Of a stretch of 64,000 bases of DNA, positions 17,625 through 56,692 are shown piece after piece. Made by a program: the position numbers and the translations under genes. The stretch is from contig CAYGRO010000003.1 in assembly GCA_964352335.1 (NCBI GenBank), positions 24,798 to 88,797 of the forward strand. The letters are read 5' to 3'. The notes below the pieces were generated by a model that searched no databases, was not told the DNA's origin, and was given only the letters and a program-made list of their open reading frames with translations. The stretch comes from an uncultured Gammaproteobacteria bacterium. GTDB taxonomy: Bacteria > Patescibacteriota > Patescibacteriia > VMEV01 > CAYQCH01. Each line of letters starts with the position of its first letter. The stretch's first letter is position 1.

Positions 17625-17726
17625 CTCTCCCCAGCCCTCTCCTTAGCAAGGAGAGGGAGGAACAGAGATCGAGTACTTCCCCCTCCTAGAGTAGGAGGGG
17701 GTTAGGGGGAGGTAACATTACCCCCC
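17625..17726. repeat. GC-rich palindromic intergenic repeat (ccctctccttagcaaggagaggg ... ccccctcctagagtaggaggggg ttaggggg) overlapping the 3' end of secA
   Basis: About 40 nt are nearly identical to the copy at 21688-21786. Confidence 0.55.
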
Positions 17727-20684: not shown

Positions 20685-21677
20685 TTAGACAAATTGTACT
20701 TCCTCTTCTAAGTCTATACCGTAAACAGCTTTTGCTTCTTTCTTAATGATTTCGGTATATTCTTTAACGGCTTGGGCATTACCTTTTCCGGTATTTACTA
20801 AAAAGTTCGCATGTTTTTCCGAAACCTTGATCCCTTTATAGGGTTCTTTTTGTTTATACCCTAATTGTTCAATAATCCATCCAGCGGGAACTTTTCCATT
20901 TTTAATAAAATCTGGATGTTCTTTTTTAATATCAGTAAAAAATTGTTTCGTTGGTTCACCAGTACTAGCAGATGATAATTTTTCTTCACCTGGAATAAGT
21001 TCGATGTTTTTGAATAAGCACCCAGCACAAAGTTCTCCCATTGGTTGGTCGGCAAACTTTTTTTTGAGCATGTCTTTTACTCGCTGTTGTGCTTCGTCAG
21101 CATCAGCAGGCTCAAGTTCAAATGTTGCTTCTAAAACAAGTTCTTTTCCTTGAGTGTCTTTAATGGCACTTGAACGATAGCGAAAATTTAATTGATCATT
21201 CGTTCTTGTTTCAATCGTTTCGCTTGTGGCAACTTGAGCCGAAACCAATGTATCTTTTACTTCCCCACCAAATGCCCCTGCATTTCCTCGTACAGCCCCA
21301 CCAACCGTCCCTGGAACAGCAATACACCATTCTAAACCAGTTAAACCAGCTTTAGCCGTTTCTTGCGCAAGCTTTGCTAATGGCAAACCAGCTTCTGCGA
21401 TGACAGTAGACCCATTAATTTTCAAATCACGATTTCTTGGTCGGATAACAATTCCTTTGATCCCTTCATCTGGCAATAAAACATTAGCCCCTCCACCTAA
21501 AATAAAATAGGGCAAGTTATTTTTTATACAAAACTGAAATACTTCTACTAATTCTTCATTCGTTTTAGGTTCAACAAAAATTTCAGCTGGACCACCAATT
21601 TTAAAGGTTGAATATTTAGAAAGAGGTTCATTCACTTTTAAAATATCGGCAAATTGTTGTTTGAATTTTTCGTACAT
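20685..21677 (-). CDS. murB: UDP-N-acetylenolpyruvoylglucosamine reductase
   Basis: FAD-binding domain (KIGGPAEIFVEP...) and the MurB C-terminal domain. The start was trimmed to MYEKFKQ. Confidence 0.85.
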   Translation of the reverse strand: MYEKFKQQFADILKVNEPLSKYSTFKIGGPAEIFVEPKTNEELVEVFQFCIKNNLPYFILGGGANVLLPDEGIKGIVIRPRNRDLKINGSTVIAEAGLPLAKLAQETAKAGLTGLEWCIAVPGTVGGAVRGNAGAFGGEVKDTLVSAQVATSETIETRTNDQLNFRYRSSAIKDTQGKELVLEATFELEPADADEAQQRVKDMLKKKFADQPMGELCAGCLFKNIELIPGEEKLSSASTGEPTKQFFTDIKKEHPDFIKNGKVPAGWIIEQLGYKQKEPYKGIKVSEKHANFLVNTGKGNAQAVKEYTEIIKKEAKAVYGIDLEEEVQFV

Positions 21678-21687
21678 AATATTTTTG

Positions 21688-21786
21688 ACATTACCCCCTC
21701 CCAACCTCCCCCTTAGCAAAGGGGAGGAGGAATAACTTTCATGTTCTTCCCCCTCCTAGCATAGGAGGGGGCTAGGGGGTGGTAAA
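21688..21786. repeat. GC-rich palindromic intergenic repeat between the murG-murC stop and the murB start
   Basis: Contains cctcccccttagcaaaggggaggagg and ccccctcctagcataggaggggg ctagggggtggta. It is a near-copy of the 17625-17726 element. Confidence 0.55.
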
Positions 21787-21789
21787 AGA

Positions 21790-24288
21790 TCATCCTAATT
21801 CCTCTGCTAATCGATAAATATCTCCTGCGCCCATCATTAAGACCACATCATTGGGCTCGATAAGTGAATTTAACGCTGTTTTTGTTTCTTGTAAAGAACC
21901 AGAGGCAATCACTTTTGGACAACGACCACGCTTTTTAATGGCATCTACAAGCATTTGAGCATTCATTTCTTCTTTGGTAATTGTTTCTCGGCCTGCAACA
22001 GCATGAATATCTGGAATAACGGTGACATCAGCAAGGTCAAATGAAGCAACAAAATCATCAAATAATGCTTGAGTTCTATGTCTTGTATGCGCTTGAAAAA
22101 CAGCAATCAACCGTTGACCAGGATAAAATTCTTTTGCTCCTTTAATTGTGGCATGAACCGCTGTTGGGTGGTGAGCATAATCACTAATAATCACAGCTTG
22201 TTTATATTGCCCCAGAATTTGAAACCGTCGCCATGTTCCTTTAAAGCTAGATAAAGCATCACAAATTTCTTGTGGCTTATGCCCGACAATGGATAAAGCA
22301 ACAGCAATAGATGCTAATGCATTTTCAATATTAAATGTTCCTGGCAGTGGAAATGAGCAAGTCGCAACTTTGTCATTATATTGATAAAGAGATAATTCTT
22401 GTTTCTGATCTTTTACCACTACTTCTTTTAACCATAAGTCATTCTCTTTTTTAGACGAGAAAGCGAAAATATTTTTTCCTGATAAATCTAGTTTTTTTGT
22501 TTGTGTATCTTCATCGTTTATTACAAGAAGCCCGTCCTCTGGTAATTTATCTACCATTTTCTGAAAAGCGGCATAATAGTTTTCTTCTGTTTTATAATAA
22601 TCTAAATGATCAGGAACAATATTTGTAATAACAAGTACATCTGGATCTATTTCTAAAAAATGTTCTTTAAACTCATCTCCTTCTACAACTAAAATATCAC
22701 TTTTCCCTGCTCTAAAATTACATTTCCAATCGTTTACAACACTTCCAACCATTGCAGAAGGGTCACATCCCATTTGGATTAAGATATGTGAAATCATCGC
22801 TGTCGTTGTTGTTTTTCCTTTATTCCCTGCAACAACAATCGTATGATAATCCTTTGATAATTGCCCAACCACTTGAAAATTAGTCATCATTTTTATCCCT
22901 AGCTCTTTTGCTTTTACAAGCTCTGGATTATCTAATGGAATAGCATCATTATAGACAATAAGATCAATATCTTCTGTCACATTAGTTGATTCATGCCCCT
23001 TAAGCACAATTGCTCCAGCTTGAGCTAATTGATCTGTAATCATATTTTGTGACAAATCTGAACCTGAAACAACTTTATGATGATGCAAAAAGAAATAGGC
23101 AATATACGAAATACCAATCCCACCAATACCAACGAAATGAACTTTTTTAATGGTTGAAAGATCTAATTGTTTATTCACTTCTTCTTGCTCTTCTCCTTCT
23201 TCAATCGCTTCCACCTTTTGATGAGAAAGTGTTTCTACAATGATATTTGCAATTTTGCTACTAGCTTCTTTTTGATAAAAACTATGAATTTTCTTTCCAT
23301 ATTCTGCTAATTTTTCTTTATCTGAAATAATTTTTTTCAATTGAGCCGCAAATAATTGAGGACTCAATGAGGTTTGATCTAAAATATGAGCTGCTTTTTC
23401 ATTCCATAAAATCTCTGCATTATCTTCTTGATGAGAATTTGGAATTGGAATAATAACAGCAGGTTTTTTTAAGGCTGATAATTCTAAAAAGGTCCCAAGC
23501 CCACCCCGTGTAACAACAAGGTCTGCTTTATCATAGGCTTCTGCCATTTCATCTGTTAAAAATTCTTTTTGTCTATAATTATCTGCTTGAATAGTATTTC
23601 CTTTATCTTTTCCTGTGATATGAATAATATTGGCAAATTTTGTCAGCTCCTCTAACCCCCCCCAAACAAATTCATTCAATGCCTGTGCCCCTGTTCCACC
23701 ACCAAAAATGAATAGAACGGGAAGATTATTATCAAAAGTAAAAGCAGTTGTTATTGGGGTAAAAATTTCTTGTCGTACAGGACCACCTGTTACCGTTGTT
23801 TTTCCTTTTTTATAATCTTGCTCAGAAGCAGGAAAAGTCACACTAATCGTTTTGGCGAATGGAGACATTAATTTATTTGCCAAACCTGGACGGATATCTA
23901 ATTGATGTATATGACTTGGAATTTTTTTAAGCCAGGCCATCCAAACCAATGGAACAGCAATAAAGCCACCAGCGGTAATAATCGCATTTGGTTTTAATTC
24001 ATTCAGTAATTTCCATGCCTTAATACAAGCGTAAATAAGTAAAAATGGCGAAACAATATTTCGTAGGCTAAAAAAACGATCCAACTTAACCATTGGTAAT
24101 GTATAAAAACTAATCTGCTTTTGTGCTATTAATTTTCTTTCTGGACCATTTTTTGTCCCTACCCAAAGATAAGACCACTTAGAATATGATGACTTAAGCT
24201 CTTCGTATACAGCTAAAAGCGGTGTTACAGGACCAATTGTTCCACCACCTGCAAATAGAATTGTTTTTTTATCTTCATTCATAAGCAA
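21790..24288 (-). CDS. murG-murC: Fused MurG (N-terminal glycosyltransferase) and MurC (C-terminal UDP-N-acetylmuramate--L-alanine ligase) protein
   Basis: Residues ~1-360 carry the MurG glycine-rich loop (FAGGGTIGPVTP) and GT-B fold. Residues ~375-832 carry MurC motifs (HFVGIGGIGISYIA...; VAGNKGKTTTTAMISHIL). Confidence 0.85.
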   Translation of the reverse strand: MLMNEDKKTILFAGGGTIGPVTPLLAVYEELKSSYSKWSYLWVGTKNGPERKLIAQKQISFYTLPMVKLDRFFSLRNIVSPFLLIYACIKAWKLLNELKPNAIITAGGFIAVPLVWMAWLKKIPSHIHQLDIRPGLANKLMSPFAKTISVTFPASEQDYKKGKTTVTGGPVRQEIFTPITTAFTFDNNLPVLFIFGGGTGAQALNEFVWGGLEELTKFANIIHITGKDKGNTIQADNYRQKEFLTDEMAEAYDKADLVVTRGGLGTFLELSALKKPAVIIPIPNSHQEDNAEILWNEKAAHILDQTSLSPQLFAAQLKKIISDKEKLAEYGKKIHSFYQKEASSKIANIIVETLSHQKVEAIEEGEEQEEVNKQLDLSTIKKVHFVGIGGIGISYIAYFFLHHHKVVSGSDLSQNMITDQLAQAGAIVLKGHESTNVTEDIDLIVYNDAIPLDNPELVKAKELGIKMMTNFQVVGQLSKDYHTIVVAGNKGKTTTTAMISHILIQMGCDPSAMVGSVVNDWKCNFRAGKSDILVVEGDEFKEHFLEIDPDVLVITNIVPDHLDYYKTEENYYAAFQKMVDKLPEDGLLVINDEDTQTKKLDLSGKNIFAFSSKKENDLWLKEVVVKDQKQELSLYQYNDKVATCSFPLPGTFNIENALASIAVALSIVGHKPQEICDALSSFKGTWRRFQILGQYKQAVIISDYAHHPTAVHATIKGAKEFYPGQRLIAVFQAHTRHRTQALFDDFVASFDLADVTVIPDIHAVAGRETITKEEMNAQMLVDAIKKRGRCPKVIASGSLQETKTALNSLIEPNDVVLMMGAGDIYRLAEELG

Positions 24289-24293: not shown

Positions 24294-25469
24294 TTAAGCC
24301 ACAGACTCTTTCACCTGATTAAATCTTCGTACAATACGTCGCCCTCGCTCTTTTTTACTTTGTGTTTTGGTCATTTGCCGGGAAATATTAATAACAATAC
24401 CAATGGCAGCAAATAAAACAACGAGCGATGAACTTCCATAACTAACAAATGGTAATGGTAAACCGGTAATTGGGAGCAATCCAACCATAGCAGAAATATT
24501 TACAAAACTTTGAAAACCTATCCAACTCATAATTCCTGCGGCAAGTAATTTCCCAAATTGATCTGGAGCTTGCCGAGCAATATGATATCCGCGAAAAATA
24601 AGTGCAAGCATTGAAAGTAAAACAATGACAACGACAATAAATCCTAGTTCTTCTGCAATAATAGCAAAAATAGAATCTCCAATAACTTCTGGTAAATATA
24701 AATGTTTCTGCCTTGAATACCCAAATCCTAAACCGAATAACCCACCAGAACCAATCGCTAATAAAGCTTGGTTAATATGATACCCAATTCCTTGTGGATC
24801 TAATTGAGGGTGTAAAAATACGGTAAATCGAGCAGCTCTATAGGGTGCAATTTTAATCAAAACAGCTAAACCAGCAATCCCTATTAAACCTAAACTTACT
24901 AAATGTTTAATACTTGCACCTGCAACAAAATACACCATTAAAGCAATCATTACGATAATAGACATTGTTCCTACATCTGGCTGTAGGAAAATAAGGAGCA
25001 TAATAATGCTAAGTGACATTAAAAAAGGTATTAATCCTTCAGAAAAATCTTTTAACACTTTTGTATCTCGTCGCTCTAACCATGCAGCTAAATAAATAAT
25101 GAATGCAAGTTTCACAATTTCTGATGGCTGGAATGTAAAGAAACCTAGATCGATCCAACTTCTTGCCCCACCAAAACTTGCTCCCAATGGAGTAAAAACG
25201 GCTAAAAGCAATAGAATAGAAAAGACGAAAATAGGAAAAGCAATTTTTTTAAATAATTTATAATCAACAAAACTTAAAATGGCACAAAAAATTAATCCAG
25301 GTAAAAATCCATTTAATAGCTGATGTTTTACATAATACAAACTATCCCCAAAGCGTTGAAACGCCACCGCATTTGAAGCGGAAGAAAGCATTACCACACC
25401 AAAAATTGCGACAAAGGCAAAAAGACCTAAAAACAAATAATCTGGTGCATGATATTTCGCTCTTCGCAT
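24294..25469 (-). CDS. ftsW: FtsW/RodA/SpoVE-family peptidoglycan glycosyltransferase (SEDS)
   Basis: 391-aa polytopic membrane protein with conserved SEDS-family segments, located within the mur cluster. Confidence 0.8.
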   Translation of the reverse strand: MRRAKYHAPDYLFLGLFAFVAIFGVVMLSSASNAVAFQRFGDSLYYVKHQLLNGFLPGLIFCAILSFVDYKLFKKIAFPIFVFSILLLLAVFTPLGASFGGARSWIDLGFFTFQPSEIVKLAFIIYLAAWLERRDTKVLKDFSEGLIPFLMSLSIIMLLIFLQPDVGTMSIIVMIALMVYFVAGASIKHLVSLGLIGIAGLAVLIKIAPYRAARFTVFLHPQLDPQGIGYHINQALLAIGSGGLFGLGFGYSRQKHLYLPEVIGDSIFAIIAEELGFIVVVIVLLSMLALIFRGYHIARQAPDQFGKLLAAGIMSWIGFQSFVNISAMVGLLPITGLPLPFVSYGSSSLVVLFAAIGIVINISRQMTKTQSKKERGRRIVRRFNQVKESVA

Positions 25470-25479: not shown

Positions 25480-26898
25480 CTAAGCATGGTGAGAAAGCGT
25501 TTTTTTAAGATCTATAATCGCTTGATCAAATTGATCTCCACGATCAAATTCATTATTAAATAAACCGAAACTGGCGAACCCAGGAGATAGCAATATAACA
25601 TCTCCTGCATCTGCTCGAACAAAAGCTTGTTTAACAGCTTGCTCCATACTTTCTGCGTCTCCATAATCAATATCATCCATCATCATGGTTTTGATTTTGT
25701 CTGTTCCTGAACCTGGTAGCCATATAATTGATTTGACCCCACCCAAGGCTGAAACAAAACCTTCTAACGGTAATTCTTTATCATATCCGCCTGCAATGAG
25801 AATCACTTTTCTTGAGTCCACAGATTTTAATGCAGCTTCTGCCGCCACAGGAGTTGTTGAAGTTGTATCATTAATAAAAGTAACCCCTTTTATTTCGTCA
25901 ATAAACTTGAGCCTACCATCTAAAGAAGCAAATGAGCCCATTTGTTGCCGAGCAGGATCTAGAGTATCTACAAGTTGATCAACAGTGGCGATCGCTGCGA
26001 GAATATTTGCATAATTATGCTCCCCCCTTAATGGTGCCTCATCTACACTTGAAATTTTTTCTCCATTTTTTACAATATCTCTCCCTTGTAAATAATAGCC
26101 TTTTTCTAATTGTTTTTCTGTAGAAAACCATTGAACTGGGGCTATTGTTTTCTCACCAATTACCTTTGTATACTCATTACTCGCATTCGTAATTAAAATA
26201 TCATCTTCCTTTTGATGGTTAGTAATTACTGCTTTTACATCTGCATATATTTGCATATCTCCATCATATCGATTCAAATGATCTGGTAAAACATTTAATA
26301 ACACAGCTATATGAGGACTCATCTTTTTTAGATTCAGGTATTCCAACATGAAATTAGATAATTCTAAAACAACAAAATCATCTTTTTTCATTTTATCTAA
26401 CATTTCTAATGGTGAACCTTTCGCAATATTTCCACCAACCCAAACCTTTTGTTTATAACCCTCTAGTAAATGGCCAATAAGCGCGGTTGTCGTACTTTTT
26501 CCTCTTGTACCAGTAATACCAATTATCTTTGCTGGACAGCGATCAAAAAACAAGGTCATTTCATGCTCAATAGGAATATTGTTTTCTAAGGCGAGCTGAA
26601 TCCATTTTGATGTAACTGGAATCGCTTGATTTGGTACAAGCAGATCACAATCTAAAATATCTACTTCTCTATGCTCACCCATAACCCAAGTTATTGTTCC
26701 TTGGTATTTTTTTTCTTCGATATAGTCTTTAACTCGCTTTACTTGAACAGATAGTTCTTCTTCTGTTTGTAAATCTGAAATAACTAAATCAGCGCCTTGT
26801 CTAATAAAAAATTTCACGGCAGCTAATCCGCTTCCGTGCTCGTATCGGCCTAAGCCTAAAATAGTTATTTTTTTTCCTTTCCAGTTGAGTTCTTTCAT
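25480..26898 (-). CDS. murD: UDP-N-acetylmuramoylalanine--D-glutamate ligase
   Basis: N-terminal ILGLGRYEHGSGLAAVKFF and Mur ligase P-loop GITGTRGKSTTTALIGHLL. The start was trimmed to MKELNW. Confidence 0.85.
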   Translation of the reverse strand: MKELNWKGKKITILGLGRYEHGSGLAAVKFFIRQGADLVISDLQTEEELSVQVKRVKDYIEEKKYQGTITWVMGEHREVDILDCDLLVPNQAIPVTSKWIQLALENNIPIEHEMTLFFDRCPAKIIGITGTRGKSTTTALIGHLLEGYKQKVWVGGNIAKGSPLEMLDKMKKDDFVVLELSNFMLEYLNLKKMSPHIAVLLNVLPDHLNRYDGDMQIYADVKAVITNHQKEDDILITNASNEYTKVIGEKTIAPVQWFSTEKQLEKGYYLQGRDIVKNGEKISSVDEAPLRGEHNYANILAAIATVDQLVDTLDPARQQMGSFASLDGRLKFIDEIKGVTFINDTTSTTPVAAEAALKSVDSRKVILIAGGYDKELPLEGFVSALGGVKSIIWLPGSGTDKIKTMMMDDIDYGDAESMEQAVKQAFVRADAGDVILLSPGFASFGLFNNEFDRGDQFDQAIIDLKKTLSHHA

Positions 26899-26956
26899 AT
26901 GCCAATCATAGCAAAAAAACGACTTCTCCCATACCCTTTTTTTCAACAGCATACCT

Positions 26957-27730
26957 CTATTTCAAAGAAAGGTAAGACCAAATCAATTTAGCTAATTCAT
27001 CTGGACTCCTTCGATAAGAAGCATAGTGATTATTTTCAAATGTACAGATGGAAGACAATTCAATATTTTGCTCTAAAACCCCCATTTTTAAAGCGAGTAC
27101 TTTATTTGCACAAGGTAAATCAAGGCTTATTTTGTCACCTTGTTTCTCTAAAACGACTTTATCCTCATCATTGAACAAACGATTGAATCGATCTTTTCTG
27201 TCATCAGTAACGGTAGAAATATCGTAACATTGGCCACAAATGGAAGGACCAATGACCATAAAAAGCTCTGATGACTCAGAATTGTATTCATCTTTCATTG
27301 TCTTTACCACCTCTTGTACAATGTTTTTACTCGTACCGCTCCACCCTGCATGGGCCAAACCTATCGCAAAATTTTTCGGGTCATAGAAAAAAATTGGCAC
27401 ACAATCTGCCGACTTAATAACAAGAGAAAGACCTGGCTGATTTGTTACCAAAGCATCAGCTTTGGGTAAATCATCTTCTTTTAAAAAGATATTCCCCTTT
27501 TGCCCTTCATTTATGACTAGCACATTATTATCATGCACTTGGTCTAGAACGAATGTCTTTTCTTCATCTGCTGAAATAGCTTTTAGTACTTCATTTCTAT
27601 TTTCTATCACATCAGAATCAGCTACCCCGCTTTCAAAACGAAGTACACCAAATGATTTTGATGTACTCCCATGAGAAAGATTTGAAAATTGTGACAGGAG
27701 TTTTGATTGCCAGATTAAATCACTCTTCAT
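26957..27730 (-). CDS. pgeF: YfiH/PgeF-family (DUF152, laccase-domain) protein
   Basis: Contains the H-x-G-W motif (GLAHAGWSG) and the C-terminal Cys pair (CGQCYD). Confidence 0.6.
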   Translation of the reverse strand: MKSDLIWQSKLLSQFSNLSHGSTSKSFGVLRFESGVADSDVIENRNEVLKAISADEEKTFVLDQVHDNNVLVINEGQKGNIFLKEDDLPKADALVTNQPGLSLVIKSADCVPIFFYDPKNFAIGLAHAGWSGTSKNIVQEVVKTMKDEYNSESSELFMVIGPSICGQCYDISTVTDDRKDRFNRLFNDEDKVVLEKQGDKISLDLPCANKVLALKMGVLEQNIELSSICTFENNHYASYRRSPDELAKLIWSYLSLK

Positions 27731-27792
27731 AAATCCGTGCTCATTAGTTAATACAGTCTTTATATCAAATTCATCAATGATTAGGAAACTAA

Positions 27793-29064
27793 CTAAGTAA
27801 ACTGATGAGGCTCTTTAAACCCTCCAACTTTTCGTTTTAAACGAGTATTTATAATACTTGCTCTTTGTAAAGCCTTTTCTCCATAACGATTATTAATCTT
27901 ATCTTGAGCTTCTAAAAGATTTCTATGACGTCTTTCTATACCTAAATAAGGTAATTGCATTCCATCTTTTTTAAGCATGGTTGCTCCAATACCAATTAAT
28001 CGTACAGGTAAACGAAAGAACCATTTATCTAACAAACTTTTGGCTATTTTATAGATATCATAACCATCATCAACATATGTTTTTAGTGTTTTCCCTTCAC
28101 CTGAACTTGTCATATCTTCCCATCGCAAATGCACCCAAATACGACGAGCTTCGTAACCATCTTTTCTTAGTCTTCTCCCAACCTTTTCTGATAACCGCAA
28201 AAGCATACGATAAACCTCATCTCTATTTACTGTATTTTGACTTAATGTATAGGTATGTCCAATTGATTTAGCAGGAGCCACCTCTTCTACATAGGGAACA
28301 ATTGTATGATCAATCCCTTTACCCATATCTGAAAGCATTTTTCCATTATTAGGCCCAAAGACTCGTTGTAATTCTTCTACAGGATAATTACCTAATTGCC
28401 GTAATGTTCTTATCCCCATATCGAATAAACGAATTTTTAAGCGATTACCAATACCTGGGATATCGGTTAATTCAACCCAATCTAAAACATGTCGTAATTG
28501 ATCTGGCTCAATAACAATTAATCCATCTGGCTTTTTCATGCTAGAAGCTAATTTAGACATCATTCTATTTGGAGCAATACCAATAGAACAAGTTAAAATA
28601 TCACCTATTTCTTCTTTAAGATTTTGTTTCATTTTATGAGCGATATCTATAGCCCCTTGATAATCTTTGACCCAGCCCGTTAAATCCATGAACAACTCAT
28701 CTACACTATAGACTTCTATACGATCACTATATCGCTTACCAATATTGATAAATTTTTGCGTAATTTCTTGGTACTTTGTTGGATCACCGTCTATAAACAT
28801 CAAATGAGGACAAAGTTTTAAGGCCTCTGAGGTCTTCATAGCTGTTTTTAGGCCATAGGCTTTTGCTTCTATAGAACAAGCAACAATAACACTTCTAGAC
28901 GCAGGAGAACCACCAATAGCAATAGGTTTACCACGCAAAAAAGGATTGCATTGCTGTTCAGCCGTTGCAAAATAGGAATTGAAATCGATATGTAATATAC
29001 AATTGACCCCGTATAACTCGTTACCTCGCTTACGGGGCAAGCCATTGATATGTGACATATGCAT
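27793..29064 (-). CDS. dinB: Y-family DNA polymerase (DNA polymerase IV-like)
   Basis: The N-terminal motif ILHIDFNSYFATAEQQCNPFLRGKPIAIGG matches the DinB/UmuC catalytic core. Confidence 0.8.
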   Translation of the reverse strand: MHMSHINGLPRKRGNELYGVNCILHIDFNSYFATAEQQCNPFLRGKPIAIGGSPASRSVIVACSIEAKAYGLKTAMKTSEALKLCPHLMFIDGDPTKYQEITQKFINIGKRYSDRIEVYSVDELFMDLTGWVKDYQGAIDIAHKMKQNLKEEIGDILTCSIGIAPNRMMSKLASSMKKPDGLIVIEPDQLRHVLDWVELTDIPGIGNRLKIRLFDMGIRTLRQLGNYPVEELQRVFGPNNGKMLSDMGKGIDHTIVPYVEEVAPAKSIGHTYTLSQNTVNRDEVYRMLLRLSEKVGRRLRKDGYEARRIWVHLRWEDMTSSGEGKTLKTYVDDGYDIYKIAKSLLDKWFFRLPVRLIGIGATMLKKDGMQLPYLGIERRHRNLLEAQDKINNRYGEKALQRASIINTRLKRKVGGFKEPHQFT

Positions 29065-29186
29065 ACCTCCCCCTAACCCCCTCCTTCACAGGAGGGGGAA
29101 GTATAAACAATTAAATACTACCTTCCCCTCCCATTCGGCTCGAGCTCATGGCCGAGAGCTAATTTAGGAGGGGATTGAGGGGTGGT
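29065..29186. repeat. GC-rich palindromic intergenic repeat (ccccctccttcacaggaggggg ... cccctcccattcggctcgagctcatggccgagagc ... ggaggggattgaggggtggta)
   Basis: Shares the ctcgagctca core with the 10994-11058 copy and the ggagggg-tgaggggtggta arm with the 21688-21786 copy. Confidence 0.55.
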
Positions 29187-29189
29187 ATG

Positions 29190-29438
29190 TTACTCCTGAT
29201 AATGTTCAACAAGATACCACTGCAAACTATCTGTATGAAGCTCTAAACGAAAAAACTCTGTGTCTGTAGCTACAGAGAAAAAATAAATACGTTCTTGACC
29301 ATTATGAGTTGAGTGGACATTTAAAATTTGCTTTATTTGATAAAGATTTTTTTCCCAACGTATTAATTTGGGGTGAACCTTCTTTTCATCAAAAAGAGCA
29401 ACGACTTTAATACGGTCTTGAAATTTTTCGTGAAGCAT
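29190..29438 (-). CDS. Hypothetical 82-aa protein immediately upstream of dinB (possible polymerase accessory factor)
   Basis: ORF only, with no recognisable motif. Its position between lexA and a Y-family polymerase is the sole basis for the functional guess. Confidence 0.3.
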   Translation of the reverse strand: MLHEKFQDRIKVVALFDEKKVHPKLIRWEKNLYQIKQILNVHSTHNGQERIYFFSVATDTEFFRLELHTDSLQWYLVEHYQE

Positions 29439-29439
29439 A

Positions 29440-30174
29440 AAGTTTTATTTAGGGAATAAAAAAACTTGCCAAAATTTAGAAGCAAGTTTTTTTATAAACA
29501 AGGTTACAGGTCGTTTTCAATCATCTTAAGGTTTAAAAGAACAAAAGATAACGTTAGATTGTAAACAACCTGTAAGGTTGTGCCAACAAAGTCGGAATTC
29601 TTGTACCTCTTATTAACTGAAAAAAAGGATTTAAAACAGAGAATAAGTCGGCCAATAAAGAATTTCGGTTCCCCTTCTCTTACCCGTCCCCAAATAAGAA
29701 AAGATGAATTGAATCGTTAGCAAGTGGTGTGGAGATGAAAAGATCTGTAACCTTGTTTATGTATGATGCAAATCTACGAATGAATACTAATCCTCCTTCG
29801 CTCTTGAGGAGCTTCGGCGGACAAGTCTGCAAATATTCAACGAATGAAAGGCATCATACTAATTTACTTTCTATTTCATTGTACGAGAGGAATGAAATAG
29901 GAGCAGTAAGAAACTTAGTGAGTGAAACTATACATCGCAACCTTATCTACAACTCTGCCAAGAAGTTGACGATAAAATGCTTTTGTTTTTCTTTTTTTCA
30001 TATTTTTGTTTTTCTAGACTAGGGTAAGGGCTGAAATAAGCAGCAATAAACAGGACCTGTCCAACCCATGGACCCGGATCATAGAGAATTTAGTTATTAG
30101 CGAGTTAAATTATTTTATGACAGTAGGAGGATGCGAATCTACGAATAAATACTAATCTACAAATATCCTACGAA
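29440..30174. other. 735-bp non-coding region between lexA and the dinB operon, carrying two copies of the AATCTACGAAT motif (29771-29805, 30133-30175) and a conserved hairpin (cgctcttgaggagcttcg); candidate ncRNA or regulatory region
   Basis: No convincing ORF. The 97-aa ORF at 29729-30022 has poor composition. Contains the hairpin aaaaacttgccaaaatttagaagcaagttttttt at 29460-29494 and a second copy of the hairpin motif at 31036-31058. Confidence 0.35.
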
Positions 30175-30801
30175 TTACATTGAGAGTTGTGGTGAAAACG
30201 ACCGGATCAAACCTTTAACAACCCCTTGAATAATTGGATCTCTTACAAATATTGGTGACATGGTTGAATTAGCAGGCTGTAAACGGATTTTATCTTTTTC
30301 TCGGTAGAATCGCTTAAGTGTTGCATAAGCATTATCGAGAAGGGCAACAACGATATCTCCATTTCTTGGACTTGGGTTTCTTTCTACAATTACGTAATCT
30401 CCGTCTAAAATTCCATCTTCAATCATTGATTCTCCTTTTACACGCAAGACATAGGAATTAGCAGGGTCGTCTACAAGAGTAATAGGAACAGCAATCGTTT
30501 CTCTTTCTTCTAAAGCTTCAATTGGACTACCTGCAGTAATGAGACCAACAAATGGTAAAGAAATAGACGGTGGTGCTGGTAGAGCTTTTGGTGTTAATTC
30601 AATAGAGCGAGCTTCATTATGATTTGAGGTGACATACCCTTTTTCTTCTAGAGCTTTCATATACTGATGAATACTTGAAGGAGATGAAAGATCAAATGCT
30701 TCTGCGATTTCTCTATAACTTGGCATATAGCTAAAGTCTTGGTAGAAGCTAATGAGAAAGTCGAGAATTTGCTTTTGTTTCTTTGTTAATTGAGCTGACA
30801 T
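30175..30801 (-). CDS. lexA: LexA repressor (S24 peptidase)
   Basis: N-terminal winged HTH (LTKKQKQILDFLISFYQDFSYMPSYREIAEAF) and the C-terminal Ser/Lys dyad (GESMIEDG ... TLKRF). The start was set to the ATG at 30801 (MSAQL); the ORF-track start is a TTG. Confidence 0.85.
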   Translation of the reverse strand: MSAQLTKKQKQILDFLISFYQDFSYMPSYREIAEAFDLSSPSSIHQYMKALEEKGYVTSNHNEARSIELTPKALPAPPSISLPFVGLITAGSPIEALEERETIAVPITLVDDPANSYVLRVKGESMIEDGILDGDYVIVERNPSPRNGDIVVALLDNAYATLKRFYREKDKIRLQPANSTMSPIFVRDPIIQGVVKGLIRSFSPQLSM

Positions 30802-30828
30802 ATGGTTTATGTTTTTCACAGAGAGGTA

Positions 30829-30866
30829 TGATGCCAATCTGCGAATGTATACTAATCTACAAATAA
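30829..30866. promoter_or_regulatory. Conserved ~35-nt motif (minus-sense GATTAGTATACATTCGCAGATTGGCATCATAC) ending about 24 nt upstream of the lexA ATG; candidate operator or promoter element
   Basis: Near-identical to the copies at 20503-20535 (secA upstream) and 29771-29805. Confidence 0.45.
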
Positions 30867-31570: not shown

Positions 31571-34500
31571 ATGACACAATTTAAAAAATGGAGTTTTTTA
31601 GGTAGTATTCTTTTTCTTACAATTGGTTCATTTCAGTATTTTTTTCAACAACAAAAAGTTGAACCAGCCTATGCAGCCGCTGGTGACGTAGCAGTAACAA
31701 TTACAAGAGCTGGGGATGCTCAAGCTGTAAGCGGAGCCAATATTCAAGTAAATTGTCCGGCAACTGGTAATAGTATTGTTTTAACAGAAGCTCCTCCCTC
31801 TTCTGGAAATTATTCAGGGAGTTTTCTTGGTCAATGTAATAATGGAGACGCTCTTCTTGCAACCATTCAAGTAAGTGGTTTTGTAGACCAAGCAGCACTC
31901 GCATTCCCTGGTAATTATAACCCTGGAACTGACCCAGATTGTGGTAGTAATACACAATGTTTAAATGTAACCAATTTTCAGCCAGGTGTAGCAATTACCG
32001 TAGAAGATGCTGGCTCTACCCCTATTACTGGGGCAACTGTAAGTTCTGCAAGTGTAGGATGTTATGCAGCTCCTGGTGGTGTTTATTTATGTATTGAACC
32101 AGAAGGCGCTGGTTGCCCAACAACAGATACGGCAACAGCCAATGCCAATGGATTTTTAGCTAATACTGGAAATTATAATCGAAGATGTAATGGGAACGAT
32201 GCACAAAGCCAAATAACAATCCAATTGGCTGTTGACCCCAATGCTGGAGGTGGTGGTATTTTCAAGTTTTTACAACAACAAGAATCTGAATCAAATAAGG
32301 AAACCATTCTACCTAAAATTAATACCAAGGCTATTGATATTCAAATTGAAGAATTAAAGCTTGAATCTACTAACCCCATTCTTATTTGCCCATTCCAAAC
32401 TGAAGAAAAAGATCTTGATGTCTATAGTTTTTACACCCCCCAAAATGCTCCGATTTCACCTATTCCAGGAGAAATTGTTCAACCAGGTATTTTTGGATTT
32501 AAAAATACACAAGGAAAAAATGTAAGAATTGAATTTAATAGTACAAATCCTGGTAATAACGATAATTGGAATTTTGAAGTCACACGCTCTCTTTATGAAG
32601 CTGTAGGGGTTCTTCTTTCATCTACAAAATATATTTATCGTGCTTCTTCAACAAATACTTTACAATTGGTTCAAATTTCTGATGCTCAATTTTTTAATCC
32701 ACAAACCTTACAAGTTATCGGAAACCAGACTATTTATGAATATGATGAAAACGGAAATCTAGCACGAGCTTTTATTCACCCTGATTTTAATGAAAACTTA
32801 CGAGAAGAACTTGCATTCGACGCCATTACTCCTCCTTCATCAGCCTTAGATCACTTTATCCCAAGAAGTAGTTGTCAATTAGCAAATGCCCCTCAACTTC
32901 CTCCAGAAAAAACAGCACCTCTTGAAATTGCCAATCCTATTATTCAATCCCCTTCTATTTTAGAGTTTGAATATGACGCAAATTCAAATGAAGTGCGTGT
33001 TGATTGTCCTGTAGAAACAGCCGTAGCTGGTATTGAGTCATTCCTCTTCTCTAAACTCTTTGCGCCAGGGATAATAGAACCAGGAAACTTACCTTTAGAC
33101 CTTGTTTATTTTATTGTTTGTGATAATGAAACAACGAACCTTGGTTTAGGTGAACGATTAGGAGTGATCAATTCATTTGCTTCAACCTTTAATAGAGTCC
33201 CATTGTCTACAGAAGACTGGATTGATGTTTTATTTATTGCCCATGGATCTGAACCAATACAAAAACCTTCTGAAAAGAAATTTGATGAAGCAAAAAATCT
33301 TTTCGTAAAACTCTTTGATCGACAACCAAATGAACAAGATCCACGTGACAGAGAAAAACTAGATCAATTAGTCTTTGGTATACGACCATTACAGCGAGAT
33401 CTCGAAAAAGAATATGGGGCTATTTTAGAATTTGGTTCAATCTTTAGTGCTTTCCCTGCCTCAAATATGGATTGGAATGTGGTAAGAACCCTTGCCTATG
33501 GAGATGATGTAATTGATTTAAATAAAGTAGATCGACAATTAGCAGATATTAGATCTTCATTAGAAAAAGGACCTTGTACAGAAGAAGAAATAGCCGCTTT
33601 AAATGCACAAAAAGCTCTATTAGAACAAGAAGCGGAAAGTCTTACAAAAAAACAAGATAAATTAAAAGATGAAATTAAAGCTTGTAATGATAAGTCCTCT
33701 GATATGCAGACCAAAAAGAATGATGCAAATACAAAAGCAGAAGATGCAGGAAAAAAATCTGACGACGCACAAAAAGAAGCAGATAAAGCAGATCAAGAAA
33801 TAGCAGACTTAGAAAAAGATATCAAAGATTTACAAGAAACATTAACTGGTGGTGATAATGTAGAAACAAAGTCTACAACAGATCCTCTTGGTGGCATTAA
33901 TTCTGGAGCTGCTATTACCTTTGATGGTGGGGTTACATGGGTTGTAGCAACTGGCGAAAGTGGTGCACAACAACTTGCAGAGAATTTGGCAAATAACCCA
34001 GGCATTGTAAAAGATTTGCAAAATAAGAAAAACGAATTGAATGAGAAAAAAGCTGATAAACAAAAAGCCGAAGAAAACAAAGAAAAGGCTGATAAAGAAA
34101 AAGCGGATGCCGAAAAAGAAGCCTCTGACCTAGAAAAACAACTTGAAGCAAAAAAAGCTGATACAGCAAAAAAAGAAAAGGACTTAGATGATATTGGAAA
34201 GCGTATTGATGAATTAAATAAAAAGATTGCCGAATTTAATGAAGTTGCAAAAAAATGCGATATCGCAGCTGCTGGTGCAAAAAGAGAAGCTTCTGAAAAG
34301 CTAAATGAAGCCAAAAAGAAATTAGACAAAATGCCCCCAGAAGAAAAAGAAGAAGCAGAAAATATCTTTGATGAAAATGCAACAGATGAAGAAAAAGGAG
34401 CCGATACAGATGCAGGATATGCTGGTGGAGCAGCTGATAAAGCAGCAGATAAACTAGAAGAAGCAATGCGTGCGGCTTCTGGCTGTAAAGATGGCGATAA

Positions 34501-35170
34501 AAAGTGTGGAGGAACCTATTCCACAGGCAAAACACTCATCGGTAGCGGGACAGAAGGATGGTTCCAAACCCTTCTCTATTTACGTGGCGGTGGTCTTGAT
34601 GGAGATGTTAAATACAATGAAATGGTAAATGATGTTCAAGATGCCTTTGGTAATGTAGAGTCGATTGAACAAGTAGGATTAGCTATTGGAACAACCGTTG
34701 AGGTTTTATCTGGCAGTAGTATTTTAGGGATTGGTATGGCTATTCCTGGTCTTGTTTATGGGGCTTGGTCAAATATAGCAACAGAAGCTGCCTTAAATAG
34801 AATTGCAGAAATTAGAAATGTTGTTCCTAACCCTACAATTGACGGAGACCTCTTCTTCTATGGAGGTTGGGATAAATATAGTCAAGACACCAGAATAGAA
34901 AGATTCATCTGTCTAGATGGAATTTGGCAACCAAATGGATCTTCACTTGTCTCTACCAAAATTACTTGTGAATATAGAGATCCAGCTATTGAAGTTGTCC
35001 CTATCCCAGAAGGAAACCTCCCCGACTACAGTGAAAAAGAAAATGGAAACTGGAGAAACCCAGATAGTCTTAAAAAATTCTCTGAATGGAGAGCAACCCA
35101 ATTAAATGAACACCAACCATTTGGTACCTGCAAAGAACAAATCTTTACGTATAGCCCTAGTTGTGGGTAA
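31571..35170 (+). CDS. Giant secreted protein (1199 aa) with an N-terminal signal/TM, a Cys-containing beta-rich region and a ~300-aa K/E/A/D-rich coiled-coil segment
   Basis: Hydrophobic N-terminus (WSFLGSILFLTIGSF). The coiled-coil block covers residues ~640-960 (KKADKQKAEENKEKADKEKADAEKEASDLEKQLEAKKAD...). Antisense ORFs in this block are low-complexity artefacts. Confidence 0.6.
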   Translation: MTQFKKWSFLGSILFLTIGSFQYFFQQQKVEPAYAAAGDVAVTITRAGDAQAVSGANIQVNCPATGNSIVLTEAPPSSGNYSGSFLGQCNNGDALLATIQVSGFVDQAALAFPGNYNPGTDPDCGSNTQCLNVTNFQPGVAITVEDAGSTPITGATVSSASVGCYAAPGGVYLCIEPEGAGCPTTDTATANANGFLANTGNYNRRCNGNDAQSQITIQLAVDPNAGGGGIFKFLQQQESESNKETILPKINTKAIDIQIEELKLESTNPILICPFQTEEKDLDVYSFYTPQNAPISPIPGEIVQPGIFGFKNTQGKNVRIEFNSTNPGNNDNWNFEVTRSLYEAVGVLLSSTKYIYRASSTNTLQLVQISDAQFFNPQTLQVIGNQTIYEYDENGNLARAFIHPDFNENLREELAFDAITPPSSALDHFIPRSSCQLANAPQLPPEKTAPLEIANPIIQSPSILEFEYDANSNEVRVDCPVETAVAGIESFLFSKLFAPGIIEPGNLPLDLVYFIVCDNETTNLGLGERLGVINSFASTFNRVPLSTEDWIDVLFIAHGSEPIQKPSEKKFDEAKNLFVKLFDRQPNEQDPRDREKLDQLVFGIRPLQRDLEKEYGAILEFGSIFSAFPASNMDWNVVRTLAYGDDVIDLNKVDRQLADIRSSLEKGPCTEEEIAALNAQKALLEQEAESLTKKQDKLKDEIKACNDKSSDMQTKKNDANTKAEDAGKKSDDAQKEADKADQEIADLEKDIKDLQETLTGGDNVETKSTTDPLGGINSGAAITFDGGVTWVVATGESGAQQLAENLANNPGIVKDLQNKKNELNEKKADKQKAEENKEKADKEKADAEKEASDLEKQLEAKKADTAKKEKDLDDIGKRIDELNKKIAEFNEVAKKCDIAAAGAKREASEKLNEAKKKLDKMPPEEKEEAENIFDENATDEEKGADTDAGYAGGAADKAADKLEEAMRAASGCKDGDKKCGGTYSTGKTLIGSGTEGWFQTLLYLRGGGLDGDVKYNEMVNDVQDAFGNVESIEQVGLAIGTTVEVLSGSSILGIGMAIPGLVYGAWSNIATEAALNRIAEIRNVVPNPTIDGDLFFYGGWDKYSQDTRIERFICLDGIWQPNGSSLVSTKITCEYRDPAIEVVPIPEGNLPDYSEKENGNWRNPDSLKKFSEWRATQLNEHQPFGTCKEQIFTYSPSCG

Positions 35171-35478: not shown

Positions 35479-35605
35479 GTCTAGCTCCTTTGCCTAAACA
35501 AGGTTTACCATACTTTTTTACAAAATGAAACGAGCTAGCAAGACAGTCCGCTCCCGTGAGGGTGCATAATGTCGAGCTAGCTCGTTGTGGGCCAATTACG
35601 CTGGC

Positions 35606-37277
35606 TTAGGGCTTGTCCCGCGCCGTGACCAGGGTCCGGGCCGGGTCGAAGGTCCCGGGGTTGAGAGGGTCTTCCCTTCGCTCGATTGCGAAGAGAAAGT
35701 CCTCACCCAGAGTGGGCGTCCCGTTCTTGATGAACATGTGGCTATCCCTCACGTCGGAGGAACGACCATCGGGCATGAACGACCACTTGTTGTCGTCCCC
35801 CAAGTCCGCGTCGTTGAATGGCAACGTGTGCCGGCCAACGGGGTTGGTGGGGTCGACGTTCAAGCGCGTCGTGCCTTCGTCGAAGGGGAACGGATGCGTT
35901 CCCAGCTGTTGATTGGCCGCATCGCGACGCACCGTGAGCGTGGGAATGACCATCGTCCCGTAGTCCGGTGGACCGAACCAGGCGGGACTGTCGGTGTTGG
36001 TGCACCGCCAGATCGACGAGACCGTGGGAAGCACCCACTTGCCTGCTGCCACCTGGTACGGAATCCCGAACCGCATGTGGGTGTCCCAGATACGGTTGGT
36101 GATATTGCCGGAGCCGTCCAGTCGAACGTGAACGGTAGGGTTACCGTCGAGCGTACGCGACTTGAACGTCTGCGTCATCCCGTTGAAGGTCGCGGTGATG
36201 GTGAAGAACGAGTTGATCCCGTTACCTCCCTTCACGTCGCGCCCCTCGATGAGGATGGGCTGGCCGTTGAAGTCGTTGACCACCGCGGCCTTGTTGGCAT
36301 CGTCGATGGACATCGTACACTGCGTGGTCACCTCCGCCATGCTCGCGAGGTCATAGACCCGGAACCGACGCCGCTCGCCCATCGAGATGAACGAGGGAGC
36401 CTGGATGACCAGCCCCGTGGAAGGAAGTGTGGGAGAGGAAGTCAGTGTCAGCTCATTGCTGACGATGACCTCATTCCAGCCCTGTTGGACGGTAGAGGTT
36501 CCACCGCCAGCGTCGGTGAAGGTCTTGGTCAAGGTGGTCTGAGCACCGACCCCGAAGGAGCGGACCTTGATCTGCTCGTTGTTGAGACGAGCGACGACCT
36601 TGCCGTCCGCATCGACAGCGGCAGCCCCAGACACGACCTCGTAGAAGACGAGGGTCCTGTTGACCGAGGAGGCGTTGTCGGTGTGAACCAGGTTGGTACC
36701 CAGCTCCGCACCGGTCCCGACGTCGATCTGAGCCGGCGCCGAGAGCGTGATGCTCTTGAGCAAGTCCGTCGTGGGGATGGGGTTGCTCCCACCACCGCCA
36801 CCGCCTCCAGTGGAAGCGACGACGACCTCCACGATGTCGGTGATCCTCTCGGTGATCGTCTTGCCGTTCTTCGTCACGGTGAACGTGATCGAAACCTTGC
36901 TAGGCGCAACGGCCAGGATCAGCCCCGTGTTGTCCAACACCTGAACGATGTTGGGGTCGGAGCTATTGACGGAGTCAGCCGTAACCTTCTCCGTCTGGCT
37001 CGTTCCCTTGAAGATCGCCACGATCTCCAGCTGCTGCTGGGTACCCTGGACGAGCTGGAAGGCACGAGGGGTCACCCCGATACCGACGAACTCGAGGTTC
37101 GCAGTGTTGGGGTTGTTGGTGGGTGGAGTGTTCGTCGGTCCACCACCGCTCGGGTTGGCACCTCCGGAGCCAGCGAGCTGGTTACCCTTGGGGCGACGAC
37201 GCGAGTCGCAGGCCTGGAAGATCATCGCCGAAACGATGACGAAGATGATCAGAAACAGGGTGCGCAATCCACGCATA
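35606..37277 (-). CDS. GC-rich putative lipoprotein with Big_2-like Ig domains, likely horizontally acquired
   Basis: Lipobox at MRGLRTLFLIIFVIVSAMIFQAC, preceded by AGGAGGTG. A Big_2-like segment (VTPRAFQLVQGTQQQLEIVAIFKGTSQTEKVTADSVNSSDPNIVQV) and G/T/S-rich linkers are present. The GC content is far above the flanks. The opposite-strand 576-aa ORF is Arg-rich antisense noise. Confidence 0.5.
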
Positions 37278-37470
37278 GTACACCTCCTAGGTGTTTGAAA
37301 CGTTGTTTGATATGAAAAAAGCACTCGCTAGCAATATGCCAGCAAATACTCTCTCCCCTTCTATTCTCTCATTACAGTGGCGCATTTAAGCGTATAATGA
37401 AAGAATAGATTAAATTACAATAAAAACGGCTTTTTGTCAAGCCATAAAGCCCCTAATAAAATAGCTAATA

Positions 37471-53600: not shown

Positions 53601-53653
53601 TTGAACATGAACACGCGAACTTATACCATAAAGGGAAACACGGTAAGCACTAA
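50615..53653 (+). CDS. Large surface protein, paralog 1 of 3 (N-terminal TM, conserved beta domain, LamG/concanavalin-like lectin domain, acidic P/E/T-rich linker, C-terminal domain and C-terminal TM anchor)
   Basis: 1012 aa. LamG signature FDGYIDEMAAFNRALTPTEVQDIYLRG. Gly-run GGGGGGGS. C-terminal helix LLALQIVIAIGLFLGLFILF followed by a basic tail. Confidence 0.6.
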   Translation: MKKQKRKKAEKVEHYSPSKKEFHLLSSPAPAFVHFFLKIGHFFHWCFHLLLPDNFKEDPGFTDHVKLFFMTRHYSYLRKFFVVWMFVITTTIGVTGYNIYQARELGAANATFPFDISGSYTFDSARVNVTGSEAVLLSVDQIDNDNTATGFAGGTFSDTNFATSHVGLDATGLTNGTGTFTSRIINAGGSVAWNQLDWTPERPIQKELPNNSGIESAYSTGNMSMTGNVLLMHLNETSGTITDSSVNGNTATGTGITYASQGIFGTGIDLTGNGDKIESSAFNYVFGTEITLAGWFRFTGPGTGSPRILEISRLGDSNTHALAPDGDGSLRAWAVCNNGSRVGSADDPTNYNDGQWHHFVYTYSNPTGIIYVDGVQTATASNACANLDDGSELILGAISDVSGNFTNAQHEFDGYIDEMAAFNRALTPTEVQDIYLRGALRQQIQVRTCDDAICDTEVFVGSDGTNGTFFSELLNSTTGLPSLAMPLPNNQYFQYQVTLETDDNVTNSRLSNVTIGPSHLDGGSPTIQNTSGIAYTSSLDSFTETLGGGHTGTTTYQLSNNGANFYYFNGGSWSPAVSSVQSNTAGIIGANITTFVNDVGTGNFFFRAFLGSNLGTQVIELDQIELTFDTGGGGGGGGSSKIFFLPPSAPGDGFQVIINEKAEQTTDQIVDLTFNAGNEVSLVELSNEQSFIESITLGLTPTIEWDLCSVSGKPVSRDCPDGEYTVYANFLTSLGQPPSPIVSDTITLGEEEEEVVEEEPVVTEPETETEETPDEEVIIEQEQNEPPITPAPSEPEETTEQPEDETQEPSVIEEEIVEENQQEPTPIQPSPEQTPPQPPINQNDPTTAPPSEVNEGQIIQTVTQEIGTNNYLLTVSTGEELEQNEKVFVQFLSGALAGQSIVLDEYVANDQEIFFYTPLQVNPSPGDKVKVSGGTVFKQETFVSPKTESTVSDFKVSAPEKPSLLALQIVIAIGLFLGLFILFSLWKQNTALTTLIEHEHANLYHKGKHGKH

Positions 53654-56600: not shown

Positions 56601-56692
56601 TCTTCCGATTATGGAAACAAAACACAACGCTTACAACACTCATCGAAGCTGAGCACAAAGAATTGTTTATGAAGAAAAGAAAGCGTAAATAA
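53654..56692 (+). CDS. Large surface protein, paralog 2 of 3
   Basis: 1012 aa, colinear with paralog 1 (TFPFDLAGNYTFD...VDQIDDDNTATGFAGGTFSDT...; LIDEFSVFDRALAPAEISDHYLRG). The linker and C-terminus are divergent. Confidence 0.6.
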   Translation: MYMKKKHHRPNHNHPVIAFLLKTSHFFHWSFHVLLPDFISKVPSAKLNRLLFLKTRYFSKMRTLVIGWLIMSISILSVTGYQFAKAPIIKAANTTFPFDLAGNYTFDTDRIAIGSSLATLPSVDQIDDDNTATGFAGGTFSDTAFSGGFLQLDATGLTNTTGLFTSRVIDAGGDVAWSSVDWTPQRPYQKDLPDSGSAETAYTAGNIDMNGNLALLHADETAGATTILDSSGNANNFSCTTCPASGGTGRFNTTLEFNGGETLEDADGETYLNGLTAFSLGFWVKSDVVGTDRGFFIGTAPSGSDDGLTIRYDDAGANGGGNDVIKAGITTTTGTTQVESSTNIQTTDWQHIVLTWTSGSALSLYVNGQLDTPTSAGATVGGAISTLDRAILGRGGKDTAAGAGWLGLIDEFSVFDRALAPAEISDHYLRGATRLGIQVRSCDDAICDIEPFIGPDGTASTFYGEGLNTTNALPSTTTLSSIVNNRYFQYQIVLDSDDSITTPQSSSFSFAPSHLDAGGPTIQNATGITYQTIDGFVETLGGGNTGTTRYQVSNNGTNFYYFNGLNWVTALSAAQSNPAGVINSNATTIATDIGTGDFFFRAFLNSALGQQIVELDEIEVIFDTSSNNNGGGGSSLLFFSQPVPPTNGFALTINEEATVTESPLVSLGFNAGSDISLVEISNEPNFLESITLTYSNPLSWNLCSSKGEAQTECIDGEYTVYAKFYKSFGQAPSVVVQDTIALLSLENIDAIDKNTEEENPTEEKLSPIEIPEDNTPPTEEPLIVDAENQEENETILSPPSEIVEQEQKKEQELLQPESTQEKELNLPTSPQTPSEQPSQPIPQKTQTLPQTQVVQQVSQEIGTSNFLISTTLPAGFDENESFVISFTSGALAGQSVLIDKYVANDQGILLFTELKTSPTIGDLFQLFSGRFYEEKTFVSPQLPPSSPVIIQYDSFTDQRSFFWFLFGLLIVTITGFGLLVLVLFRLWKQNTTLTTLIEAEHKELFMKKRKRK

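Follow-up and report, generated by a model that had tools for sequence, protein, structure and literature searches.

Does the single long open reading frame (ORF) in the cell-wall gene cluster of an uncultured Patescibacteria bacterium encode a true fusion of the glycosyltransferase MurG to the ligase MurC, and if so, what would such a fusion do? The ORF lies in a stretch of 64,000 nucleotides (positions 24,798 to 88,797 of contig CAYGRO010000003.1, assembly GCA_964352335.1), the whole of which we call the window. Very probably it is a genuine chromosomal fusion of two neighbours, murG and murC, of the division and cell wall (dcw) cluster in a member of the Patescibacteria, or candidate phyla radiation (CPR). 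Its product would consist of two full-length modules on either side of a flexible acidic linker, each carrying out its normal reaction independently of the other.

An earlier note on this DNA had described an 832-codon ORF at 21790..24288. That ORF exists, with two corrections. It is on the minus strand, which the note had left unstated: translation of 21790-24288 on the plus strand is riddled with stops, and the minus-strand frame is uninterrupted. Also, the mechanical ORF opens with a TTG at 24288, and the more likely start is an ATG two codons inside it, at 24282, which sits 11 nt past the ftsW stop codon. A public record of the same protein (P0001, 100% identity; NCBI contig of 126 kb) begins at this ATG and is 830 aa long. 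The gene and its parts are as follows.

21790..24282, minus strand: fused murG-murC gene, 830 codons from the ATG at 24282, stop codon at 21790-21792.
23227..24282, minus strand: MurG module, aa 1-352 of the 830-aa protein, a predicted GT-B glycosyltransferase of family GT28 (PF03033, PF04101, TIGR01133).
23143..23226, minus strand: linker, aa 353-380, SHQKVEAIEEGEEQEEVNKQLDLSTIKK, 28 aa with 8 acidic and 4 basic residues.
21793..23142, minus strand: MurC module, aa 381-830, a predicted three-domain ATP-dependent Mur ligase (TIGR01082).

These module limits use the 830-aa numbering from 24282; the Pfam positions that follow use the 832-aa numbering. Five Pfam domains occur in the expected order, all exceeding their gathering cut-offs: Glyco_transf_28 (10-148), Glyco_tran_28_C (191-336), Mur_ligase (382-481), Mur_ligase_M (486-664) and Mur_ligase_C (687-822). 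Both GT28 domains are thus present, PF03033 at 90.4 bits and PF04101 at 104 bits. Aligned separately to profile models, as the earlier note had proposed, each half is full length. The murC model TIGR01082 (NCBIfam) aligned over positions 1-448 of its 449 and scored 410.6 bits, where the cut-off is 335.1; it beat the murD, murE, murF and mpl models by >250 bits. The murG model TIGR01133 (NCBIfam) was covered over positions 1-353 of 353, but its 248.4 bits fall 1.9 short of the cut-off of 250.25, and a second NCBIfam murG model, NF009102, gave 222 bits against a cut-off of 339. With E-values of 1e-74 to 1e-123, chance matches are not an issue. The MurC half contains the P-loop GNKGKTTT and the motifs DHLDYY, NIENA, WRRF and DYAHHPT; residues G387, G388, G489, K490, T491, T492, E534, E537, H559, N654, R685, R686, D701, Y702, H704 and P706 were invariant in an alignment of 70 sequences. 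By score and by its ATP/Mg and UDP-N-acetylmuramic acid (UDP-MurNAc) motifs, namely GxGGxG, the GKTT P-loop, E, DH, NxxNA, RRF and DYAHHP, this half is a three-domain MurC ligase, with L-alanine-adding activity predicted. The claim that one frame encodes MurG and MurC, both complete, therefore holds, as does the observation that two non-consecutive steps of the pathway, normally encoded by separate genes, are joined here. Among the NCBIfam matches listed, bifunctional models were seen for MurC/Ddl and MurE/MurF and none for MurG/MurC. Public names of such fused proteins mention MurC only.

A single-nucleotide insertion or deletion (indel) error in the junction could in principle have merged two separate genes, and one feature of the linker looks the part. 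In an alternative frame a TGA (gat TGA) is followed by AAGGAG and then, 14 nt on, by an in-frame GTG, which would give an N-terminus, MNKQLDLSTIKKVHF, resembling that of unfused MurC. This layout is what a frameshift error in 'catcaaaagg' would hide. Yet the identical 830-aa protein comes from the 126-kb NCBI contig, and the fusion recurs in frame in four other independent assemblies, at 40-80% identity and with linkers of differing length and sequence. Three of these are orthologs: P0002 (JGI 3300023202, 80% identity to the window protein), P0003 (Logan ERR3484146, 66%, found on 7 contigs, one of them of 124 kb) and P0004 (ENA ERZ23498363, 60%). The fourth, the more distant P0005 (ENA ERZ27256875, 40%), is likewise fused in frame. 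The junction peptide that the earlier note had cited is present exactly as given, and each of the five fused genes examined (5/5) had frame 0 open through the junction, with several stops in both other frames. P0002 has zero in-frame start codons within the 30 codons preceding its MurC module. At 35% G+C any stretch of 28 codons should contain off-frame stops, the 14-nt spacing from AAGGAG to GTG is poor, and neither element is kept in the orthologs.

Recurrence in assemblies from JGI, Logan and ENA (two) with differing linkers makes an indel artefact very unlikely; we consider it extremely improbable. The artefact had been called unlikely before, on the ground that the junction runs on through an acidic linker. 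That conclusion stands, on the strength of the four other in-frame fusions; the acidity of the linker is not the good argument for it. As judged from these comparisons, the fusion belongs to the organism and not to one assembly.

Two readings of the linker itself were tried and rejected. An internal MurC start within the linker had neither a conserved start codon nor a conserved Shine-Dalgarno sequence across the five fused genes. The off-frame TGA/AAGGAG/GTG, taken as the footprint of an indel or of an ancestral stop and start, was judged coincidental: the orthologs lack the pattern, and off-frame stops are abundant everywhere.

Conservation across the fused orthologs follows the module boundaries. 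Identity to P0002, P0003 and P0004, respectively, was 74, 67 and 59% for the MurG half, 86, 68 and 64% for the MurC half, and 42, 36 and 12% for the linker. This pattern points to purifying selection on both modules and drift of the spacer between them.

Relatives indicate how the fusion could have arisen. In L011 (GCA_964503955.1), which has the same gene neighbourhood and whose MurG and MurC are each 59–60% identical to the corresponding half of the window protein, the genes are unfused: murG (357 aa) ends in TGA, and the murC ATG follows after 2 nt. In L001, a complete chromosome of Candidatus Kerfeldbacteria (CP181398.1, 7995-10430) with the same neighbourhood, murG and murC share a frame and are separated by one stop codon, with the murC ATG directly after it; the junction reads ...IIKLAEK, then the stop, then MNFSEIKNIHFIGVGG. 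By its sequence this pair would be one point mutation short of fusion. In L004, a metagenome-assembled genome of Bacteriovoracaceae, murG and murC overlap by 14 nt. L001 and L004 had first appeared as full-length fusions because tblastn read across the gene boundary; they were rejected as adjacent unfused genes. Since the genes lie 0-2 nt apart in relatives, loss of a stop codon between packed neighbours would plausibly explain the origin of the fusion, and one substitution or small indel suffices. The fused genes and their nearest unfused counterparts are only ~60% identical in protein, too far apart for the exact stop-removing mutation to be reconstructed. No fused species representative was found in a scan of genome contigs.

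To what extent is the fusion a marker of descent, as had been suggested? We placed 117 MurC domains in a neighbour-joining (NJ) tree with 100 bootstraps, a simple distance tree whose deep nodes are weak. P0001-P0004, all fused, form one clade with 84% bootstrap support. This clade is nested in a 100%-supported one, the remainder of which comprises 19 stand-alone MurC proteins and two MurC-MurB fusions (P0009 and P0010). By contrast, P0005 joins the unfused P0032 and P0033 at 100% support, so its fusion was a separate event. Fitch parsimony on the 117-domain tree required at least 14 changes between fused and unfused states, an approximate count given the weak deep nodes.

An exhaustive HMMER search covered 1.84 billion representatives at 50% identity, and the best 150 clusters were classified. 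Among these were 42 MurG+MurC fusions and several MurC-MurB fusions. The window protein is only ~29–32% identical to most of the other fused clusters. We interpret the MurG-MurC fusion as common and strongly homoplastic. As a phylogenetic marker it would serve only for the local four-member clade, which is nested among unfused and MurC-MurB relatives. The same 150 clusters held two MurG-MurC-MurB triple fusions, P0367 (1198 aa) and P0371 (1155 aa); a MurG-MurC fusion with a linker of ~120 aa (P0297); and a tandem double Mur ligase (P0312) that may be MurD-MurC.

An AlphaFold2 model, run on the 70-sequence alignment, had a mean predicted local distance difference test (pLDDT) of 93.4, falling below 50 only at aa 360-370, and a predicted template-modelling score (pTM) of 0.64. 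In the model the last MurG helix (340-363) extends into the low-confidence stretch, and the Rossmann-like N-domain of MurC begins at residue 380. The pTM fits two rigid modules whose mutual orientation the model leaves undefined. Searched by sequence against the PDB, the MurG half matched chains 7d1i, 3s2u and 1f0k (E 2e-35 to 2e-24) and the MurC half matched MurC chains (E 9e-74). Foldseek matched the MurG half to Pseudomonas aeruginosa MurG:UDP-GlcNAc (3s2u) with a target-normalised TM-score (TMt) of 0.86 and to 1nlm (TMt 0.76). The MurC half matched 1p31/1p3d at TMt 0.92-0.93 and a root-mean-square deviation (rmsd) of 2.0-2.2 A, Haemophilus influenzae MurC being at TMt 0.92 and rmsd 2.0 A. 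No PDB chain spanned both halves in the Foldseek and sequence searches (best query-normalised score, TMq, 0.52), which found no MurG-MurC chimera of solved structure. Across 30 fused proteins the linker measured 6-62 aa, with a median of 16.5, and no sequence was common to them.

What might the fusion do? Without the stop and start signals that once stood between them, the adjacent murG and murC would now yield a single polypeptide, predicted at 830 aa and, estimated from that length, ~90 kDa. Its N-terminal MurG module would convert lipid I and UDP-N-acetylglucosamine (UDP-GlcNAc) to lipid II, and its C-terminal MurC module would ligate L-alanine to UDP-MurNAc, driven by ATP. The acidic linker of ~28 residues, poorly conserved and predicted to be flexible, would join modules that each work separately, as in the normal enzymes. 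Membrane association of MurG is established for the Escherichia coli enzyme. Fusion would enforce 1:1 co-expression and would hold the otherwise soluble MurC near a membrane-peripheral MurG. The pathway itself leaves no room for substrate channelling, because MurD, MurE, MurF and MraY act between the MurC and MurG steps. The earlier claim that the fusion couples early and late lipid II synthesis physically thus reduces to a tether and 1:1 co-expression, with no evidence of functional coupling. Perhaps the fusion is close to neutral and simply follows from the extreme packing of the genes; it need not be adaptive.

A tentative alternative is that the fusion was selected as a scaffold, MurG nucleating a multi-enzyme Mur complex and the tethered MurC linking the making of precursors to the step at the membrane. 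Published work describes oligomers of MurG to which Mur ligases bind, and MurC co-localised with MurG (PMC6420597, PMC10214165). The fusion has been kept among orthologs down to 60–80% identity, and MurG-MurC fusions recur independently many times, as do MurC-MurB and even MurG-MurC-MurB. But all of these recurrent fusions join immediate neighbours, which neutral loss of stop codons also predicts, and close relatives are unfused (L011, P0006-8) or have MurC fused to MurB instead. The linker is conserved in neither length nor sequence. Nor does the model, with its disordered tether and a pTM of 0.64, hint at any fixed orientation of MurG to MurC, although PAE and interface contacts were not examined. 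An open-access literature search found no experiment on any MurG-MurC chimera. Between an adaptive and a neutral tether we lean to the near-neutral one.

The MurG half departs from the canonical sequence at one conspicuous place. Its first G-loop (window 24228-24248, minus strand; aa 12-18) reads GGGTIGP, compared with GGTGGH in E. coli, Pro replacing His19, and the HEQN motif reads HQLD. Reportedly, Hu et al. in 2003 proposed His19 as important for catalysis in E. coli MurG. Residues of the UDP-GlcNAc site (E. coli R164, T266, E269 and Q289) are kept, with GGPVR, RGGLGTFLE and SHQEDNA aligning to them. Across the lineage, whether the genes are fused or separate, the G-loop takes the forms GGGT[IM]GP or GGGTxGS, and in place of HEQN stands HQLD, HQMD or HQQD. 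Pro or Ser in place of the G-loop His is common to P0002-P0005, L010, P0027 and P0031, to unfused L011 (GP) and to the Kerfeldbacteria L001 (GS). Some other CPR-like representative clusters (P0246, P0247, P0249 and P0250) share this substitution; P0248 and P0251 keep the His. Because unfused L011 and L001 have it too, the substitution is a lineage trait independent of the fusion, not decay that followed it. A literature search on the role of His19 gave one docking paper, which placed the residue in the active site.

These substitutions would also suit a half-dead fusion, in which the MurG module has become catalytically degenerate and serves as a mere membrane anchor or scaffold for MurC, lipid II being made by another enzyme. 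The shortfalls of the MurG half against TIGR01133 and NF009102 are in keeping with this, and alternative lipid II synthases are known in principle, as the title of one paper indicates (PMC8092295). Against it, the same substitutions occur in the stand-alone MurG of unfused relatives, the MurG half is conserved among orthologs as much as the MurC half, the donor-site residues are kept, and AlphaFold2 models this half as a confident, complete GT-B fold. We regard a degenerate MurG as very unlikely. It is also unlikely that MurG of this lineage, fused or not, forms a mechanistically distinct subfamily of lipid II synthases with another catalytic base or another acceptor or donor, whose C-terminally attached MurC might compensate for or regulate the change. 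Were that so, the fusion would give natural access to a last cytoplasmic step of wall synthesis that, in CPR bacteria, is non-canonical.

We retain the reading of a genuine fusion of two independently working enzymes, and several points weigh against it. The single-chain product and both activities are predicted. A second, stand-alone murG or murC may lie outside the 64-kb window. The G-loop His, absent here, is retained in every non-CPR-type MurG half aligned that shows the motif, and TIGR01133 falls just under its cut-off; chemistry identical to that of canonical MurG is assumed, and the G-loop change lowers confidence in identical catalysis, not in homology. An indel in the window's own assembly is formally conceivable, to which, judging from conservation in relatives, we give next to no weight. 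Finally, the phylogeny is an NJ tree only, with 56% support for the sister relation of the fused clade to the unfused P0006-8 group.

Fusions of this kind have precedents. Laddomada 2016 (PMC4929429) already described murG-murC fusions, with Cellulomonas gilvus as one example, and a paper of 2019 (PMC6420597) cited them again. A 2023 survey (Shirakawa 2023, PMC10214165) put MurG-MurC at 9% of Mur chimeras, concentrated in Actinobacteria with unidentified species excluded, and stated that channelling 'does not hold' for this pair. With one ORF predicted to encode a complete MurG and then a complete MurC, the window protein would fall within the Mur chimera class of that survey. The MurG-MurC class is already known, and the window gene is an ordinary new example of it. 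Like the C. gilvus chimera, it has an N-terminal MurG, a short linker and a C-terminal MurC, from adjacent dcw genes for non-consecutive steps; the difference is that it belongs to a Patescibacteria/CPR lineage and arose independently. Our literature search found no paper on a MurG-MurC fusion in CPR.

Two other kinds of chimera bear comparison. MurE-MurF of Bordetella pertussis (PDB 8F5D; PMC10214165, PMC6420597) is likewise a bifunctional fusion of adjacent mur genes (bifunctionality being predicted for the window protein); in MurE-MurF each half is independently active, and forms with and without a linker occur. Its halves catalyse consecutive steps and pack head to tail via a hydrophobic patch, whereas the window protein pairs non-consecutive steps, has a GT-B partner and is modelled with a flexible tether. 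In MurB/C of Verrucomicrobium spinosum (PMC4803751) and MurC-Ddl of Chlamydia, MurC is fused to its other dcw neighbour; these differ from the window protein in the partner and in the side of MurC to which it is joined. MurC-MurB fusions P0009 and P0010 occur in the sister lineage of the clade to which the window protein belongs; in the window murB is separate, 70 nt downstream.

The fused gene occupies the dcw place between ftsW and murB, in the order murD-ftsW-murG/murC-murB. Its neighbours are these.

26957..27730, minus strand: pgeF, peptidoglycan editing factor of the Cu-oxidase_4 family (TIGR00726, 156.8 bits), first gene of the conserved block.
25480..26952, minus strand: murD (TIGR01087, 335.3 bits), upstream of ftsW.
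24294..25469, minus strand: ftsW (PF01098; TIGR02614, 351.9 bits), directly upstream of the fusion in the same orientation.
21720..21789, minus strand: murC-murB spacer, 70 nt, with G+C-rich palindromes CCCCTCCT-N5-AGGAGGGG at 21750-21770.
20685..21719, minus strand: murB (NF010480, 261.7 bits), directly downstream of the fusion.

Read along the minus strand, the genes run lexA, an 82-aa ORF, dinB, pgeF, murD, ftsW, murG-murC, murB and secA. The arrangement DUF378-lexA-dinB-pgeF-murD-ftsW-murG/murC-murB-secA is common to the window, the fused L010 and the unfused L011, and pgeF has the same position in L010, L011 and L014. The SOS-type genes lexA and dinB, together with pgeF, thus stand directly upstream of murD (window 26957-30837, minus strand; also L010 and L011) in place of the usual mraZ-mraW-ftsI-murE-murF-mraY part of the cluster. 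In L014, which is more distant, pgeF follows a Glycos_transf_4 (MraY-like) gene. None of mraY, murE, murF and ftsZ was seen among the window ORFs scanned. The mechanical murB ORF begins at a TTG inside the palindromic spacer; an ATG in the same frame at 21677 is the likelier start and makes the protein 330 aa long, like its L010 ortholog.

The spacer palindrome CCCCTCCT-N5-AGGAGGGG has three matches compared with 0.03 expected: at 21750-21770, and at 17680-17700 and 17636-17656 just downstream of secA. A 106-nt sequence of the murC-murB spacer folds as RNA at -55.3 kcal/mol (z = -3.7). The palindromes may be transcript-end, terminator or stabiliser hairpins, or a repetitive extragenic palindromic (REP)-like element, in a genome of 35% G+C. 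Scans for promoter-like sites (34 compared with 50.9 expected) and terminator-like sites (9 compared with 9.2) were uninformative, and an Rfam scan of the window gave one tRNA only, nothing relevant to the fusion.

Elsewhere the window, at 34–38% G+C, carries that tRNA, glycolytic genes, a Suf system and giant surface-type proteins. The closest named relatives of its SecA, at 57–60% identity, are from Candidatus Veblenbacteria, Magasanikbacteria, Uhrbacteria, Buchananbacteria and 'Patescibacteria group'. On these features we assign the window to a Patescibacteria/CPR bacterium, and the names suggest a lineage near the ABY1-type orders. At 50615-59733 on the plus strand are three tandem paralogous ORFs of 1012, 1012 and 1011 aa, with a Laminin_G_3 (concanavalin-like lectin) domain in the first two, the two that were scanned; these are probably surface proteins expanded by tandem duplication. 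The segment 34000-38000 is at 45–51% G+C within the ~35% G+C genome. Antiparallel ORFs of ~575 aa each, at 35585-37315 (plus) and 35606-37324 (minus), overlap nearly fully there, their sole match being a weak Big_2 on the minus frame. Upstream of this pair, a 1199-aa ORF (31571-35170) is without a family assignment.

With the fused gene, the known class of natural Mur chimeras gains a well-supported member from CPR/Patescibacteria. The case also shows how easily such fusions form, relatives holding intermediate states in which a 2-nt gap or a single in-frame stop separates the genes. For annotators it is a warning that a product predicted to be bifunctional may carry a public name giving MurC only, and it likewise warns against using MurG-MurC fusion as a deep phylogenetic marker. 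Its value is modest and incremental; for tests of a native MurG-MurC interface, a CPR chimera that is compact and short in the linker could be a suitable construct.

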